From a virus (lineage: Duplodnaviria; Heunggongvirae; Uroviricota; Caudoviricetes): 6,081 nucleotides of DNA. Positions 50-5,852 of this stretch are shown one piece after another (the stretch's first letter is position 1; every line of letters begins with the position of its first letter). The stretch is from positions 1 to 6,081 of the IMG/VR virus record IMGVR_UViG_2645727640_000005, one strand, 5' to 3'. The translations under genes were made by a program, and so were the position numbers. The notes below the pieces were generated by a model that had not been told where the DNA came from, made no database searches, and saw nothing but the letters and a program-made list of their open reading frames with translations.

Positions 50-136
50 GTTGGAGTCATTACCCGCCTTATCGACATACTTAATCAGCCAGGAGTCCCA
101 AAAAATGGATCAAACACTTATGGCTATCCAGACTAA
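50..136 (+). pseudogene. cIII: cIII 3' remnant (C-terminal ~23 codons of lambda-like CIII, no start codon in window)
   Basis: Frame-2 translation of 65..136 gives [23 protein letters not shown], matching the C-terminus of lambda CIII as I recall it. Upstream, the same frame has an in-frame TAA at 47..49 and no ATG, and no frame of 1..64 encodes the CIII N-terminus or amphipathic helix. The kil ATG sits at the cIII 3' end, as in lambda. Confidence 0.4.
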
Positions 137-248
137 ATTCACTATCGCCACTTTTATTGGCGATGAAAAGATGTTTCGTGAAGCCGTCGACGCTTATAAA
201 AAATGGATATTAATGCTGAAACTGAGATCAAGCAAAAGCATTCACTAA
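105..248 (+). CDS. kil: Kil, host cell-division (FtsZ) inhibitor, 47 aa
   Basis: ATG at 105 inside the 51..248 track ORF gives a 47-aa product ([12 protein letters not shown]...[10 protein letters not shown]), the length and sequence I recall for lambda Kil. It sits upstream of and overlaps gam, as in lambda. The track ORF's 5' extension begins at TTG and is probably not used. Confidence 0.8.
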
Positions 249-619
249 CCCCCTTTCCTGTTTTCCTAATCAGCCCGGCATTTCGCGGGCGATATTTTCA
301 CAGCTATTTCAGGAGTTCAGCCATGAACGCTTATTACATTCAGGATCGTCTTGAGGCTCAGAGCTGGGCGCGTCACTACCAGCAGATCGCCCGTGAAGAG
401 AAAGAGGCAGAACTGGCAGACGATATGGAAAAAGGCCTGCCCCAGCACCTGTTTGAATCGCTATGCATCGATCATTTGCAACGCCACGGGGCCAGCAAAA
501 AAGCCATTACCCGTGCGTTTGATGACGATGTTGAGTTTCAGGAGCGCATGGCAGAACACATCCGGTACATGGTTGAAACCATTGCTCACCATCAGGTTGA
601 TATTGATTCAGAGGTATAA
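203..619 (+). CDS. gam: Gam, RecBCD inhibitor (full-length GamL form, 138 aa)
   Basis: 138-aa ORF that matches lambda Gam along its whole length as recalled ([20 protein letters not shown]...[10 protein letters not shown]). An internal ATG at 323 preceded by AGGAG (311..315) corresponds to the short GamS start. Synteny is kil-gam-bet-exo. Confidence 0.95.
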
Positions 620-624
620 AACGG

Positions 625-1410
625 ATGAGTACAGCACTCGCAACGCTGGCAGGGAAGCTGGCTGAACGTGTCGGCATGGATTCTGTCGACCCACAGGAAC
701 TGATCACCACTCTTCGCCAGACGGCATTTAAAGGCGATGCCAGCGATGCGCAGTTCATCGCATTGTTGATCGTCGCCAACCAGTACGGCCTTAATCCGTG
801 GACGAAAGAAATTTACGCCTTCCCTGACAAGCAGAACGGCATCGTTCCGGTGGTGGGCGTTGATGGCTGGTCCCGCATCATCAACGAAAACCAGCAGTTT
901 GACGGCATGGACTTTGAACAGGACAACGAATCCTGCACATGCCGGATTTACCGCAAAGACCGCAATCATCCGATCTGCGTTACCGAGTGGATGGATGAAT
1001 GCCGCCGCGAACCATTCAAAACCCGCGAAGGCAGAGAAATCACCGGACCGTGGCAGTCGCATCCCAAACGGATGTTACGGCATAAAGCCATGATTCAGTG
1101 TGCCCGTCTGGCCTTCGGATTTGCTGGTATCTATGACAAGGATGAAGCCGAGCGCATTGTCGAAAATACTGCATACACTGCAGAACGTCAGCCGGAACGC
1201 GACATCACTCCGGTTAACGATGAAACCATGCAGGAGATTAACACTCTGCTGATCGCCCTGGATAAAACATGGGATGACGACTTATTGCCGCTCTGTTCCC
1301 AGATATTTCGCCGCGACATTCGCGCATCGTCAGAACTGACACAGGCCGAAGCAGTGAAAGCTCTTGGATTCCTGAAACAGAAAGCCACTGAGCAGAAGGT
1401 GGCAGCATGA
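625..1410 (+). CDS. bet: Bet (Red-beta) single-strand annealing protein, 261 aa
   Basis: 261-aa ORF matching lambda Bet as recalled ([35 protein letters not shown]...). GAGG at 611..614 lies upstream of the ATG. Its stop overlaps the exo start in an ATGA junction (1407..1410). Confidence 0.95.
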
Positions 1411-2087
1411 CACCGGACATTATCCTGCAGCGTACCGGGATCGACGTGAGAGCTGTCGAACAGGGGGATGATGCATGGCACAAATTACGGCTCGGCGTCA
1501 TCACCGCTTCAGAAGTTCACAACGTGATAGCAAAGCCCCGCTCAGGAAAAAAGTGGCCTGACATGAAAATGTCCTACTTCCACACCCTGCTGGCTGAGGT
1601 TTGCACCGGTGTGGCTCCGGAAGTTAATGCTAAGGCGCTGGCCTGGGGAAAACAGTACGAGAACGACGCCAGAACCCTGTTTGAATTCACTTCCGGCGTG
1701 AATGTTACTGAATCCCCGATCATCTATCGCGACGAAAGTATGCGCACCGCCTGCTCTCCCGATGGTTTATGCAGTGACGGCAACGGCCTTGAACTGAAAT
1801 GCCCGTTTACCTCCCGGGATTTCATGAAGTTCCGGCTCGGTGGTTTCGAGGCCATAAAATCAGCTTACATGGCCCAGGTGCAGTACAGCATGTGGGTGAC
1901 GCGAAAAGATGCCTGGTACTTTGCCAACTATGACCCGCGTATGAAGCGTGAAGGCCTGCATTATGTCGTGATTGAGCGGAATGAAAAGTACATGGCGAAT
2001 TTTGACGAGATGGTGCCGGAGTTCATCGAAAAAATGGACGTGGCACTGGCTGAAATTGGTTTTGTATTTGGGGAGCAATGGCGATGA
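1407..2087 (+). CDS. exo: Exo (Red-alpha) 5'-3' dsDNA exonuclease, 226 aa
   Basis: 226-aa ORF matching lambda exonuclease as recalled ([40 protein letters not shown]...GEQWR). ATGA overlap with bet, as in lambda. Confidence 0.95.
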
Positions 2088-2245
2088 AGCATCCTCACGA
2101 TAATATCCGGGTAGGCGCGATCACTTTCATCTACTCCGTTACAAAGCGAGGCTGGGTATTTCCCGGCCTTTCTGTTATCAGAAATCCACTGAAAGCACAG
2201 CGGCTGGCTGAGGCGATAAATAATAAACGGGGGCTGTATGACTGA
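2084..2245 (+). CDS. small ORF (53 aa) coupled to exo; positional equivalent of lambda orf60a, with a different 3' end
   Basis: ATG 2084..2086 overlaps the exo stop (ATGA). It translates to [53 protein letters not shown]. Lambda has orf60a in this position with the same 4-nt overlap. The ORF is shorter than 60 codons and its end overlaps the methyltransferase start, consistent with a mosaic junction near 2180..2240. It is below the size cutoff of the ORF track. Confidence 0.45.
2150..2176 (+). terminator. putative intrinsic terminator (tL3-like) downstream of exo
   Basis: Hairpin GGCTGGG (2150..2156), loop TATTT, CCCGGCC (2162..2168), seven pairs including one G-T wobble, followed by the T-rich run TTTCTGTT. 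Lambda is known to have tL3 shortly downstream of exo; identity with tL3 is from position only. Confidence 0.35.
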
Positions 2246-2795
2246 TTTCACCGGAAGCAATACTCCTGCCGAACATCGCGACAGCTGGCGCACACCACCA
2301 GAGATTTTTGCTGCGCTTAATGCAGAGTTCGTTTTTCAACTTGATGCTGCCGCCAGCGAAAAAAACCGACTATGTCGGCTTTTTATCTCACAGGAGCAGA
2401 ACACATTAACCACTTCATGGCCTGAAGCAATGGGATATGCCTCTGGTTATGTCTGGTTGAATCCACCATACAGCAATATTTCCCCTTTTGTGAAAAAGGC
2501 AGCCACTGAAAACAAATTCAGTAGTGTGGGATGTGTAATGTTATTGCCTGCTGACACATCTGTCGGATGGTTTCATGAAGCGATACAAACCGCCAGTGAG
2601 GTCAGATTCATCACGGCAGGACGACTGGCATTTATTAACCCACTCACGGAGAAACCCGTCAGTGGAAATAATAAAGGCTCGATGCTCATTATCTGGCACC
2701 CATACCCCCGTACACACTGCCACTTTACGACCGTTGATCGTGGAGAGTTGATGGCGTTCGGCTCAAGGATTCTTGCCCGTCGGGAGGCTGCATGA
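2238..2795 (+). CDS. orphan phage-type DNA N6-adenine methyltransferase (phage Dam family), 185 aa
   Basis: 185-aa ORF with an N-terminal WRTPPEIF motif, an FQLDAAAS motif and the catalytic NPPY tetrad (WLNPPYSN), the hallmark of the small phage Dam methyltransferase family. GGGGG lies 4 nt upstream of the ATG. No restriction endonuclease partner is visible in the window. Confidence 0.85.
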   Translation: MTDFTGSNTPAEHRDSWRTPPEIFAALNAEFVFQLDAAASEKNRLCRLFISQEQNTLTTSWPEAMGYASGYVWLNPPYSNISPFVKKAATENKFSSVGCVMLLPADTSVGWFHEAIQTASEVRFITAGRLAFINPLTEKPVSGNNKGSMLIIWHPYPRTHCHFTTVDRGELMAFGSRILARREAA

Positions 2796-2875
2796 CAACC
2801 ACGGAATGCATTTTTCTGGCAGCGGGCTTCATATTCTGTGTGCTTATGCTTGCCGATATGGGACTTGTTCAATGA
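2792..2875 (+). CDS. possible 27-aa hydrophobic peptide, start and stop both in ATGA overlaps
   Basis: ATG 2792..2794 overlaps the methyltransferase stop (TGA 2793..2795). The ORF encodes MTTTECIFLAAGFIFCVLMLADMGLVQ and its TGA (2873..2875) overlaps the ATG (2872..2874) of the next gene. The hydrophobic core could form one transmembrane helix. It is below the track cutoff and could be chance. Confidence 0.3.
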   Translation: MTTTECIFLAAGFIFCVLMLADMGLVQ

Positions 2876-3087
2876 CACCTCAGCAGGAAAACGCCCTTCG
2901 CAGCATTGCCCGTCAGGCTAATTCTGAAATCAAAAAAGCCAGACAGCAGTTTCCGGATAAAAACGTCGATGACATTTGCCGTAGCGTACTGAAGAAGCAC
3001 CGCGAAACGGTAACGCTGATGGGATTCACACCGACTCACTTAAGTCTGGCAATCGGTATGTTAAACGGCGTCTTTAAGGAACGGTGA
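2872..3087 (+). CDS. hypothetical protein, 71 aa
   Basis: Inside the 2773..3087 track ORF. ATG 2872 gives MTPQQENALRSIARQANSEIKKARQQ...GVFKER. An alternative ATG at 2806 would give 93 aa, and the track start at 2773 is TTG. No motif recognised. The start choice is uncertain. Confidence 0.5.
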   Translation: MTPQQENALRSIARQANSEIKKARQQFPDKNVDDICRSVLKKHRETVTLMGFTPTHLSLAIGMLNGVFKER

Positions 3088-3107
3088 ACATGAAAAGCAA
3101 AATCATC

Positions 3108-3133
3108 AGGGAGCTACAGGCTCCTTTTTTATT
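3108..3133 (+). terminator. putative intrinsic terminator or attenuator between genes
   Basis: GGAGC (3110..3114), loop TACAG, GCTCC (3120..3124), immediately followed by TTTTTT (3125..3130). The stem is short, 5 bp extendable to 7 with a G-T pair. It lies within a possible 29-aa ORF (3090..3179). Confidence 0.4.
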
Positions 3134-3185
3134 ATTCGCATTCACCCTCAAGCGTATTAACCAACAATTCAGGGATTAATGAAAG

Positions 3186-3407
3186 ATGGCAGATATCATT
3201 GATTCAGCATCAGAAATTGAAGAATTACAGCGCAATACAGCAATAAAAATGCGTCGCCTGAACTACCAGACTGTATCCGCAACTCATTGTTGTGAGTGTG
3301 GCGATCCGATAGATGAACGAAGACGCCTGGCAGTTCAGGGTTGTCGGACTTGTGCAAGTTGCCAGGAGGATCTGGAGCTTATCAGTAAACAGAGAGGTTC
3401 GAAGTGA
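3186..3407 (+). CDS. TraR/DksA-family C4 zinc-finger protein, 73 aa
   Basis: Cys at residues 35, 38, 56 and 59 give C-x2-C-x17-C-x2-C with a GDPIDERRR segment between the pairs, the pattern of the phage and plasmid TraR/DksA zinc-finger family. Its stop overlaps the GTG start of the next gene. Confidence 0.7.
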   Translation: MADIIDSASEIEELQRNTAIKMRRLNYQTVSATHCCECGDPIDERRRLAVQGCRTCASCQEDLELISKQRGSK

Positions 3408-4090
3408 GCGAAATTAATTATCAGGCACTGCGTGAAAAGGCAGAGAAAGCAACTAAAGGAAGCTACATCGTAGGGCATACATCTGTTAACCAGCACGGCA
3501 ATTTAACAGGAGTTTTTGTTTGCCAAAAATGGAAAGGAGAACCCGGTGGTGTGATTGCGGAATGTCATGTTAACTGCCTGGTTGAAACAGATGTTCAGGC
3601 TTATGCAAACGCTGAATTTATTGCTGCTTTTAATCCAAATGTTGCGCTGGCACTACTGGATGAACGGGAAAGAAACCAGCAATACATCAAACGCCGCGAC
3701 CAGGAGAACGAGGAGATTGCGCTTACGGTTGGGAAGCTGCGCGTTGAGCTGGAAGCCGCAGAGAAGCGCAACGCAAAATTACAAAGCGAGAATGCATACA
3801 TCCGCAACCGGTACAAAGAACTGGACCTGTTAATCGGGAAAAACATTCTGGTCATGCAGGCTGCCATTATCGAATGGCAATCGACTGGCGACGCTAAAAG
3901 CGGACTGGCATGGATTTATAACACACTGTTTGGCCCAGGCGAATTGCCGGACGAATCTGAGAAAGATGCTCAGGCCTACTTTAATCGCAAATATGCACCG
4001 ATTGACGAAAAGCTTATGGCGCTTCACAAGTGGTTTTGGGAACAAAGTGAAGCCAAGCGCGCCGCTGGCATTCGCATCAAAGGAGAGTGA
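3404..4090 (+). CDS. Ead/Ea22-like coiled-coil protein, 228 aa
   Basis: GTG start at 3404 with AGAGAGG 6 nt upstream. The N-terminus (INYQALREKAEKATKGS) and the NAEFIAAFNPNVALALLDE segment resemble the conserved motifs of prophage Ead/Ea22-like proteins as I recall them. The central region (LTVGKLRVELEAAEKRNAKLQSENAYIRNRYKELD) is a heptad-like coiled coil. Confidence 0.6.
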   Translation: MSEINYQALREKAEKATKGSYIVGHTSVNQHGNLTGVFVCQKWKGEPGGVIAECHVNCLVETDVQAYANAEFIAAFNPNVALALLDERERNQQYIKRRDQENEEIALTVGKLRVELEAAEKRNAKLQSENAYIRNRYKELDLLIGKNILVMQAAIIEWQSTGDAKSGLAWIYNTLFGPGELPDESEKDAQAYFNRKYAPIDEKLMALHKWFWEQSEAKRAAGIRIKGE

Positions 4091-4091
4091 G

Positions 4092-4607
4092 ATGGCGTTA
4101 ACACACCGAGAACTCTGTCAGATTGCGTACAAGTTCCTTAAGCGCAACGGGTTCAAGGTTTGCTTTCATGACCGCTTTATAGCCGTAACCAGTACCGGAG
4201 AACAGCCAGATGCTATGGGATTCAGAAATTCAGCATCATGCCTGATAGAGGCGAAATGTTCTCGTGCTGACTTGTTGGCAGATAGAAAAAAGCGTTTTCG
4301 TAAAAATCCGTCTCTTGGAATGGGAGACTGGCGATTCTTTATTAGTGAGCCGGGAACTATTTCAATTGAGGATTTACCACCTGGCTGGGGATTACTTCAC
4401 GTTGTTAACGGAAGAGTACGGAAAGTACATGGATGGCCCAAGGGGAATTGCTGTTGGGGTAACCCTGAGGATAAACCTTTTATTGGGAATAAGCAGGTTG
4501 AATGCGATTACATGTTGTCTGCCTTAAGGCGCATGGAGTTGAGAGGGCACCTTAATGAAATATATGACGGTGTAATTGTTAATAAGAAAGAAGGAAACGC
4601 GGCATGA
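4092..4607 (+). CDS. hypothetical protein with PD-(D/E)xK nuclease-like motif, 171 aa
   Basis: ATG 4092 with GGAG 6 nt upstream. The track ORF 3930..4607 extends 5' in another frame of the upstream gene and is not used. The N-terminal 60 aa have a helix, two strands, PD at residue 40 and hhEAK at 53-55 (FIAVTSTGEQPD...SCLIEAK), the canonical PD-(D/E)xK arrangement. The C-terminal 100 aa are Trp/Cys-rich (GNCCWGNPED, VECDY) and not recognised. A nuclease function is inferred from the motif only. Confidence 0.55.
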   Translation: MALTHRELCQIAYKFLKRNGFKVCFHDRFIAVTSTGEQPDAMGFRNSASCLIEAKCSRADLLADRKKRFRKNPSLGMGDWRFFISEPGTISIEDLPPGWGLLHVVNGRVRKVHGWPKGNCCWGNPEDKPFIGNKQVECDYMLSALRRMELRGHLNEIYDGVIVNKKEGNAA

Positions 4608-5491
4608 TCACTATTACCAAAGGGCGACTGCTGACAATCAAACAGTGGCGCGAAACATACGGACCTGGTAGCAACGTTGTACTGCCAGCAGAAGAAGCGG
4701 AAGAACTGGCACGAATTGCTCTGGCAGCGCTGGAAGCCGAGCCGATAGGTTTCCGTTGCAGGCGCAATGATAACCTTGGTGATTGGAGTTACGTATATCA
4801 TCGAGAGCCAGATGATTTTGAGCGCAAACATTTAGTGATAGAGGGCATTTACGCCGCCCCTCCAGCACCAGTAGTACCGGAAGAAAAACCAATGCCTAAT
4901 CCTCTTAGCATGTACGCGGTTGATGCTGTTGCCGCTATTGCAGAGGTGAGAGGCTGGAACGCCTGCCGTGCCGCTATGCTTCAGTCCGGAAACTTTCGGG
5001 AAAACAAGAATTCGTCAACCAATAATTTTCGGGAAATCGCGGAAACGTCAACCAACTATCCGGTAATTCCTAGTGAGGTGTTGTCCGCAATCCTGAAGGT
5101 TGCCAAGATTCGTGCCGATGTCGATGATTTTGACGGTGACAGGCGAGGTATCGGTGATTGTCTGGATGAGGCTGAGCAAGAGCTTATCGTTACCATTAAC
5201 AAATATGCCAGTCAGTTGGCAGCAGAACCTATAGCGCCTAATGACGTTCGAGAGCAGACAGCCATTCCACAAGTTCCGGTGACTCCGGATGGTTGGATAA
5301 GCTGTAGTGAGCGAATGCCGAATACCAAAACAGCCGTTCTTGTTGCCGTGGAGTTTGACAGGAAAGGTGACTGGCGAATGAAATGGGCTACTTACATCCC
5401 GGGGCATCCTGACGCTAATGATGGGTGGATAATTCCTGGTGCGTCGTGGAAACCGTCACACTGGATGCCGCTACCAGAGCCTCCACTTTGA
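4604..5491 (+). CDS. DUF551-type prophage protein, 295 aa, with internal tandem repeat
   Basis: ATG 4604 overlaps the upstream stop (ATGA) and AAGGAA lies 7 nt upstream. The C-terminal ~70 aa (WISCSERMPNTKTAVLVAVEF...GWIIPGASWKPSHWMPLPEPP) match the DUF551 signature of prophage proteins as I recall it. The N-terminal half is acidic and helical. Confidence 0.75.
   Translation: MITITKGRLLTIKQWRETYGPGSNVVLPAEEAEELARIALAALEAEPIGFRCRRNDNLGDWSYVYHREPDDFERKHLVIEGIYAAPPAPVVPEEKPMPNPLSMYAVDAVAAIAEVRGWNACRAAMLQSGNFRENKNSSTNNFREIAETSTNYPVIPSEVLSAILKVAKIRADVDDFDGDRRGIGDCLDEAEQELIVTINKYASQLAAEPIAPNDVREQTAIPQVPVTPDGWISCSERMPNTKTAVLVAVEFDRKGDWRMKWATYIPGHPDANDGWIIPGASWKPSHWMPLPEPPL
4991..5056 (+). repeat. 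imperfect 33-bp tandem direct repeat (2 copies) in frame within the DUF551 gene
   Basis: Copy 1 (4991..5023) AACTTTCGGGAAAACAAGAATTCGTCAACCAAT and copy 2 (5024..5056) AATTTTCGGGAAATCGCGGAAACGTCAACCAAC match at 25 of 33 positions. They encode NFRENKNSSTN and NFREIAETSTN. Confidence 0.8.
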
Positions 5492-5587: not shown

Positions 5588-5767
5588 ATGTCTTGTCCAA
5601 AATGCGGTTCTGGAAATATTGCAAAAGAAAAAACAATGCGTGGATGGTCTGGTGATTATGTGTGCTGCGATTGCGGATACAACGACTCTAAAGACGCATT
5701 TGGAGAGCGTGGTAAAAACGAGTTTGTCAAAATTAATAAAGAACGCGAAGGCAACGAAAAAAGCTAA
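5588..5767 (+). CDS. small zinc-ribbon protein, 59 aa
   Basis: ATG 5588 with GGAG (5575..5578) upstream. The track start at 5555 is TTG. Cys at residues 3, 6, 26 and 29 give C-x2-C-x19-C-x2-C, and the C-terminus is Lys/Glu-rich. Codon usage is AT-rich. It is followed by a terminator and sits immediately upstream of xis, in the position of lambda's small unnamed ORF and ea8.5. Confidence 0.55.
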   Translation: MSCPKCGSGNIAKEKTMRGWSGDYVCCDCGYNDSKDAFGERGKNEFVKINKEREGNEKS

Positions 5768-5830
5768 TTTATTATTCATATATGAAAACAATGTAACCAA
5801 TATTCGAATTGAAGAACTGAAAGAACACCA

Positions 5831-5852
5831 AGCCGCCTGATGGCGGTTTTTT
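5831..5852 (+). terminator. putative intrinsic terminator upstream of xis
   Basis: CCGCC (5833..5837), loop TGAT, GGCGG (5842..5846), extendable by A-T and G-T pairs, followed by TTTTTT (5847..5852). Confidence 0.5.

Follow-up and report, generated by a model that had tools for sequence, protein, structure and literature searches.

The best-described relatives of the gene considered here are small RNA polymerase (RNAP)-binding proteins of the TraR/DksA family, and the closest of them is Orf73 of phage lambda. Purified lambda Orf73 competes with DksA for its site on RNAP and inhibits rrnB P1 without ppGpp, with an IC50 of about 50 nM that equals the potency of TraR; rpsT P2 is inhibited as well (Gopalkrishnan et al., mBio 2022, PMC9239242). 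This activity depends on D3 and D6, and D3N/D6N substitutions cripple the protein; TraR has likewise been shown to require its DxxDxA motif. In the cell, lambda Orf73 complements a dksA-null strain on minimal medium, slows host growth when made from pL or from a plasmid, and lowers the activity of rRNA and ribosomal-protein promoters; after mitomycin C induction, phage yield is 3-4-fold higher when orf73 is present (PMC9239242). The lambda lytic promoters tested are unaffected by Orf73 and host promoters are activated weakly if at all, and ppGpp independence was found for TraR and for all five homologues tested, lambda Orf73 included (PMC9239242). In TraR itself, the DxxDxA tip points to the active-site region, R48/R49 to the rim helices and beta'Si3, and the C-terminal helix to beta-Si1 (PMC9239242). 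A model of the Orf73/RNAP complex that includes Stx-phage copies is also available, and Stx-phage orf73 copies have been mutated (PMC8614690); orf73 mRNA has been found after both infection and induction of lambda and of phi24B (PMC4195576). The alleles studied experimentally are those of lambda and phi24B/933W, each of which differs at 4 positions from the allele described below.

The stretch of DNA analysed here (6,081 nt, hereafter the window) is the pL early-left operon of a lambdoid, Stx-type prophage, read in the direction of pL transcription. Its gene order is collinear with the lambda series kil-gam-bet-exo-orf60a ... orf61-orf73-ea22 ... xis, and can be listed as follows:

105-248, plus strand: kil
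323-619, plus strand: gam
625-1410, plus strand: bet
1407-2087, plus strand: exo
2078-2245, plus strand: orf60a (DUF1317)
2238-2795, plus strand: phage Dam methyltransferase (PF05869, E 2e-56; TIGR01712)
ending at 3087, plus strand: orf61-type gene
3186-3407, plus strand: orf73-type gene, very probably encoding a TraR-family RNA polymerase-binding zinc-finger protein (73 aa plus TGA)
3404-4090, plus strand: Ea22-like gene (228 aa; PF13935, E 5e-35), the downstream, translationally coupled partner of orf73
4092-4607, plus strand: 171-aa ORF
4604-5491, plus strand: DUF551 protein (295 aa)
5588-5767, plus strand: 59-aa zinc ribbon
5830-5849: terminator-like hairpin
5880 onward, plus strand: start of xis

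BLAST against lambda gives 96-98% identity from kil to orf60a, across orf61, orf73 and the start of ea22, and at the xis end; in particular, window positions 2792-3452 correspond to lambda 31008-30347 at 96.2%. The window as a whole was not found in any single deposited phage or complete E. coli genome, the best partial covers being a Stx1-type phage (86% coverage, 98.4% identity) and the chromosome of a chicken E. coli isolate (88% coverage), which is the usual lambdoid mosaicism. From bet to the end of the 295-aa ORF at 5491, consecutive ORFs either overlap or are separated by at most 6 nt. At gathering thresholds, Rfam returned no RNA family for either strand of the window, and a known structured RNA was rejected on that basis as an explanation of the region. 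Promoter-like matches across the window are no commoner than in shuffled sequence.

Several neighbours of orf73 deserve a description of their own. Inside orf60a lies a strong terminator-like hairpin (2139-2179, plus strand; stem 2148-2170), probably lambda tL3, the terminator present on Red-recombineering plasmids. Save for its last base, it is the predicted t1 of Bloch et al. (2014). The Dam-type N6-adenine methyltransferase gene (2238-2795) takes the position of lambda orf63, between orf60a and orf61, and its segment (about 2241-2791) has no lambda counterpart. Lambda homology resumes exactly at the ATG of a 27-aa hydrophobic ORF (2792-2875, plus strand; MTTTECIFLAAGFIFCVLMLADMGLVQ), which is identical in lambda, has a good Shine-Dalgarno sequence (GGGAGG) and is joined by ATGA overlaps to Dam on its upstream side and to ATG 2872 on its downstream side. 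The orf61-type ORF (2806-3087, plus strand) encodes 93 aa here, as it does in the annotation of 933W, or 71 aa if read from ATG 2872; the 27-aa ORF overlaps the N-terminus of the 93-aa version out of frame, which makes it probable that one annotation or the other is in error. An A-run at 2933-2938 counts 6 A in the window and 7 A in the lambda reference (the locus there spanning 31024-30713), so that the annotated lambda orf61 (61 aa) is the window ORF 2806-3087 cut short by a frameshift; the second half of the ORF is still open in lambda in the +1 frame.

On the other side of orf73, the Ea22-like gene is a mosaic when set beside lambda ea22, similarity being confined to the first ~50 nt, a central piece of 119 nt (90%) and the last ~30 nt; residues 116-216 of its predicted product match the PADLOC 'DpdH' model (E 1e-36). 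The 171-aa protein (4092-4607) had no match in Pfam, NCBIfam, PADLOC or the PDB sequences, and the only PHROGs to which it belongs, phrog_9263 and phrog_631, have no known function; inspection by eye shows a PD...(14 residues)...E-A-K pattern reminiscent of PD-(D/E)xK nucleases, and its ORF is ATGA-coupled to the downstream DUF551 gene. Directly upstream of xis, the 59-aa CxxC...CxxC zinc ribbon (5588-5767, plus strand) belongs to phrog_2945, of unknown function, with a likeness, sub-threshold only, to Lar restriction-alleviation and HVO_2753-type zinc-binding proteins.

The first-pass annotation had proposed a TraR/DksA-type zinc finger at 3186-3407, and the ORF there is indeed intact: it runs on the plus strand from ATG to TGA through 73 codons free of internal stops, and encodes MADIIDSASEIEELQRNTAIKMRRLNYQTVSATHCCECGDPIDERRRLAVQGCRTCASCQEDLELISKQRGSK, in which the C35-x2-C38-x17-C56-x2-C59 zinc motif is readily found. 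The elements to which the argument below refers are these:

3192-3209, plus strand: codons of the DxxDxA motif (D3-I-I-D6-S-A8), read from the sequence
3288-3362, plus strand: C4 zinc-finger globular domain (C35, C38, C56, C59; extra C36 and C53), placed by TraR alignment and conservation
3321-3326, plus strand: codons of R46/R47, which correspond to TraR R48/R49 by alignment
3354-3398, plus strand: codons of the predicted C-terminal helix, residues 57-71 (AF2 secondary structure)
3393-3397, plus strand: AGAGG, a Shine-Dalgarno-like stretch before the GTG of the Ea22-like gene
3404-3407, plus strand: GTGA stop/start overlap, orf73 TGA with the Ea22-like GTG

The product is identical to lambda Orf73 at 69 of 73 residues (94.5%), with the substitutions Y27H, T29A, V30I and A49V (window residue first); at the DNA level, 7 nt differ in synonymous codons and 5 nt in the 4 non-synonymous ones. 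Lambda orf73 itself lies at 30613-30392 of NC_001416, where it carries no annotation. The phi24B/933W protein is likewise 94.5% identical to the window protein (I4L, Y27H, T29A, V30I, window residue first). Position agrees with sequence: as in lambda, the gene sits in the exo-xis block between orf61 and ea22, as expected of a positional orthologue of lambdoid orf73. The same allele is widespread, the 333 nt at 3088-3420 recurring at 100% identity in a large number of deposited Stx1a/Stx2 phages (among them Stx2 phage 86 and those of the JNE series), where the coding sequence is labelled 'DksA-like zinc-finger protein' or 'putative C4-type zinc finger protein'; identical protein and DNA also occur in BP-4795-like, YYZ-2008 and Stx1a JNE series phages, and tblastn finds the identical protein in further phage records. 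In complete E. coli genomes the gene is present in 3,296 of 5,426, in up to 6 copies per genome, its ORF is intact in thousands of genomes, and RefSeq labels it 'TraR/DksA family transcriptional regulator', overlapping an 'ead/Ea22-like family protein' coding sequence (222-nt query). The 933W genome contains two identical orf73 copies ~1.1 kb apart on the minus strand (3735-3953 and 4876-5094), neither of which is a CDS in the NC_000924 feature table. On the minus strand of the window, two ORFs cross the locus (3196-3357 and 3335-3496) and a single promoter-like site lies nearby (a 9/12 match); we treat these ORFs as shadows of the conserved plus-strand gene. A PADLOC scan of orf73 gave a single meaningless 13-bit match, which ruled it out as a known defence component.

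The match to the family goes far beyond chance. With 37.8 bits, the protein clears the gathering score of Pfam PF01258 (zf-dskA_traR), 24.9, its residues 33-64 covering profile positions 4-35 of 36, and phrog_54, 'DksA-like zinc-finger protein', aligns with it from end to end (E 6e-26). The NCBIfam model TIGR02419 ('phage/conjugal plasmid C-4 type zinc finger protein, TraR family') also aligns full-length (residues 3-64 on 1-64 of 64) but at 55.1 bits stays below its cut-off of 59.7; since lambda Orf73 (54.7) and phi24B Orf73 (54.8) miss that cut-off by the same margin, while F TraR scores 80.5, the shortfall is a property of the curated threshold, and we rejected it as an argument against membership given that the validated lambda Orf73 falls equally short. 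Among PDB sequences, phmmer aligns residues 1-64 with F TraR as present in its co-crystal with RNAP (5W1S, residues 1-66), the M-x-D-x-x-D-x-A stretch at the N-terminus included.

The predicted structure points the same way. An AF2 model built on the homologue alignment (mean pLDDT 82.7) shows a helix over residues 3-29, a zinc knuckle and a second helix over residues 57-71, with pLDDT of about 90 across the zinc domain and the C-terminal helix. Members of the TraR subfamily, ~70-75 aa long, are built in this way, from one N-terminal helix, a zinc globule and a helix at the C-terminus, and a confident TraR-like AF2 prediction from the wild-type sequence is new here. In a Foldseek search of the PDB the top neighbours are RNAP-bound TraR chains (6n57_M and 5w1s_M, probability 1.00, TM about 0.55), followed by YbiI and then DksA; E-values reach a modest 6.5e-3 and the rmsd comes to about 7 A, because the helices of this 73-residue protein are modelled free and not in the RNAP-bound arrangement. 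The same effect of a free model on helix angles has been reported for lambda Orf73 (PMC8614690, Donaldson review).

Conservation was assessed on 89 full-length homologues of 58-96% identity. The acidic tip is nearly invariant (D3 98%, D6 98%, A8 100%), as are the zinc ligands (C35 100%, C38 97%, C56 94%, C59 93%), the arginine pair that aligns with TraR R48/R49 (R46/R47 97%) and the C-terminal helix (E64 98%; L65, K68 and Q69 at least 90%). The positions at which the window protein departs from lambda Orf73 (27, 29, 30 and 49) are variable among the homologues, and window V30 and A49 are the majority residues. To judge from its sequence, the window protein thus keeps every hallmark needed for TraR/Orf73 activity. 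Taking identity and function together, we consider it very probable that the window carries an allele of orf73, a gene of lambdoid phages, that this allele encodes a TraR-family protein and that, its 4 substitutions notwithstanding, the protein would act as lambda Orf73 does.

By analogy with that protein, action can be envisaged as follows. After induction or infection, orf73 would be transcribed within the N-antiterminated pL early-left operon, and its product would bind host RNAP without binding DNA. With the long N-terminal helix inserted into the secondary channel, the acidic DxxDxA tip would come close to the active site; the C4 zinc globule, which includes R46/R47, would sit on the beta' rim helices and beta'Si3, and the C-terminal helix would touch the Si1 insertion of the beta lobe. 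RNAP conformation would thereby be altered such that, without ppGpp, promoters with short-lived open complexes (those of rRNA and ribosomal proteins) are inhibited, and the outcome would be slower host growth and a diversion of resources to phage production. The suggestion of the first-pass annotation that a phage copy in the early operon binds the RNAP secondary channel and redirects host transcription is thus borne out, at one remove, by the lambda Orf73 literature (PMC9239242). The three assays proposed alongside it (RNAP binding, rRNA promoter activity and complementation of a dksA mutant) have in fact already been published for lambda Orf73 (PMC9239242), and from 94.5% identity the window allele can be expected, with high confidence, to behave in the same way in all three.

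What this activity is mainly for is less settled. The GTGA overlap with the Ea22-like gene, also claimed in the first-pass annotation, is present: bases 3404-3407 read GTGA, and lambda has the equivalent junction. The GTG at 3404 is the normal N-terminus of the family, as the PF13935 (Ead/Ea22-like) match starts from residue 2 at profile position 1; the annotated start of lambda ea22 is at the equivalent base. Such tight coupling would fit a function shared between orf73 and the Ea22-like gene, and it is possible, if on balance doubtful, that TraR-like RNAP binding is kept while the main role is not to boost the burst: it could be a pro-lysogenic bias, or a 'bin' block to replication initiation exerted together with ea22 and its neighbours. 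In work of the Wegrzyn laboratory, as relayed in PMC8614690, deletion of orf73 in lambda and Stx phages cut host survival and lysogenisation efficiency, hence the term 'pro-lysogenic', which is also the term attached to orf73 in Zdrojewska et al. 2019 as cited; earlier work noted in PMC9239242 implicated orf73, ea22, ea8.5 and orf55 in inhibiting host replication initiation. Against this, in-frame and D3A/D6A mutants in single-copy lysogens lower phage yield 3-4-fold, and dnaA mRNA is affected weakly if at all (PMC9239242). The authors lay the discrepancy to the way mutants were constructed and lytic growth was begun (PMC9239242). The pro-lysogenic and pro-lytic readings are not mutually exclusive, and TraR-like RNAP binding is common to both.

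Expression of the gene bears on a second and much less probable alternative. Upstream of orf73, two further features occupy what looked like an intergenic gap:

3084-3179, plus strand: 31-aa ORF, MNMKSKIIRELQAPFLLFAFTLKRINQQFRD, which fills the 98-nt apparent gap 3088-3185
3099-3136, plus strand: predicted intrinsic terminator t2, inside the 31-aa ORF (stem-loop 3108-3126, then TTTTTTATTATT)

The GTG of the 31-aa ORF overlaps the TGA of the orf61-type gene (GTGA; ATGA in lambda, where the ORF is conserved with an ATG start) and its TAA lies 6 nt before the orf73 ATG. This ORF puts orf73 in the middle of the chain: the first-pass annotation had placed the gene at the head of a coupled series, of which the coupling to the Ea22-like gene stands and the head position does not. 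Ribosome profiling of lambda, as cited in PMC8614690, revealed an additional 31-aa peptide in the conserved block, to which we infer the window 31-aa ORF to correspond. Ahead of orf73 there is no strong Shine-Dalgarno sequence (GGGA at -16 to -13, GAAAG at -5 to -1), which makes translation by re-initiation after the 31-aa ORF plausible. The t2 hairpin, 50 nt upstream of orf73, folds at -10.2 kcal/mol (z -3.5) and is followed by a T-run in the terminator scan. It is an exact match to the t2 predicted for lambda and phi24B (Bloch et al. 2014, Table 4), and the BPROM-predicted promoter p1 of the same study (Table 3) also matches exactly, its boxes (3103-3108 and 3127-3135) overlapping t2; both t2 and p1 are computational predictions. 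When a named lambda terminator was sought in the literature for this hairpin, tL3 turned up only in accounts of Red plasmids, and the hairpin is instead the predicted t2. Translation of the 31-aa ORF would melt the t2 hairpin, and could in this way couple read-through into orf73/ea22 to translation.

It could be argued, then, that the allele is silent or inactive, either through a stop at t2 combined with poor translation or through damage to folding by the substitutions or the extra cysteines. The terminator-like hairpin with its T-run and the lack of a strong Shine-Dalgarno sequence would both be in line with silence; and yet transcription from pL is N-antiterminated, so that t2 should largely be read through. 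Measurements cut both ways: in lambda, orf73/ea22 mRNA stands below that of genes upstream of t2, the level between orf61 and orf73 stepping down, whereas in phi24B it steps up, notably after H2O2, and orf73 mRNA is as abundant as N mRNA (PMC4195576). By ribosome profiling as cited in PMC9239242, moreover, lambda Orf73 reaches a high level of expression in the first 20 min after induction. As for folding, the extra cysteines have been speculated to disturb the globular domain (PMC9239242), but the four substitutions sit in variable columns, C53 is 91% conserved in the clade, the zinc domain is confidently predicted by AF2, and lambda Orf73, with the same six cysteines, is as potent as TraR. 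We therefore regard a silent or inactive allele as very unlikely, and return to an expressed, lambda-like protein.

These extra cysteines nevertheless raise a question of their own. The window protein has cysteines at 35, 36, 38, 53, 56 and 59, of which C36 and C53 are additional to the zinc motif. That C53 is widely kept in the Orf73 clade and C36 is not (91% against 39% of the homologues) is new here. Given this pattern, and that F TraR has no counterpart, one may conceive, as a long shot, that in Orf73-type proteins they form a redox- or metal-sensitive switch. If true, the switch would tie reprogramming of host transcription to oxidative stress, which is an inducing signal of Stx prophages in the gut. 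[quoted passage not shown]

The remaining alternatives can be dealt with briefly. A DksA-like cofactor that requires ppGpp would share with the window protein the Pfam zinc finger and the DxxDxA tip, and DksA chains are among its structural neighbours; but at 73 aa with one N-terminal helix it is too small for a DksA coiled coil, which needs about 150 aa, the DksA equivalog models do not reach their cut-offs, the best sequence and structure matches are to TraR and not DksA, and TraR and its five tested homologues act without ppGpp (PMC9239242), so that we rejected this highly improbable reading on size, architecture and ppGpp independence. Least probable of all is a zinc finger that acts on something else than RNAP, for instance a YbiI-like protein of unknown role or a nucleic-acid binder: E. 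coli YbiI gives the lowest phmmer E-value in the PDB (3.8e-5) over the zinc finger only (residues 31-65), while TraR alone aligns full length, DxxDxA helix included, and the closest relative, 94.5% identical, is a proven RNAP binder, which led us to reject it.

Family, mechanism and phenotype of this gene are thus already known from lambda Orf73, and the gene itself is widely annotated; identical copies are annotated in many Stx phages, and the gene is in most E. coli genomes. The interest of the allele is in part practical, as Stx-type prophages carry it: shutting off host ribosome synthesis during induction, independently of ppGpp, may alter the yield of phage, and hence of toxin, in EHEC. 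It also lies where the lambda and Stx-phage studies conflict, a pro-lytic, higher burst (PMC9239242) being set against the 'pro-lysogenic' role as presented in PMC8614690.

Among known systems, lambda Orf73 (Orf2310 in the ribosome-profiling study) is the nearest, with the same 73 aa, six cysteines, DxxDxA motif, R46/R47 pair and C-terminal helix, and the same orf61-ea22 position in the pL operon, complete with the GTGA overlap, the upstream 31-aa ORF and the t2 hairpin; the operons differ in that lambda has orf63 where the window has the Dam methyltransferase, and in the Ea22-like gene and the genes between ea22 and xis. The phi24B/933W protein ('putative C4 zinc finger protein', TraR family) likewise has the same 73 aa and operon position. 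F-plasmid TraR (5W1S, 6N57) shares with the window protein its length of 73 aa, its three-element architecture, DxxDxA at positions 3-8, the 17-residue C4 spacing and the RR pair, but there are a number of differences: (i), it is about 30% identical to the window protein and has four cysteines, not six; (ii), it is encoded within a tra operon for conjugation and switches on tra promoters and some of those of the host, whereas activation by lambda Orf73 is weak, if any, at the promoters tested. Finally, E. coli DksA has the same Pfam zinc-finger family, acidic DxxDxA tip and RNAP secondary-channel site, but is about 151 aa long, bears that tip at a coiled coil and is fully active only with ppGpp, while the window protein is half that size and presents its tip on a single helix.
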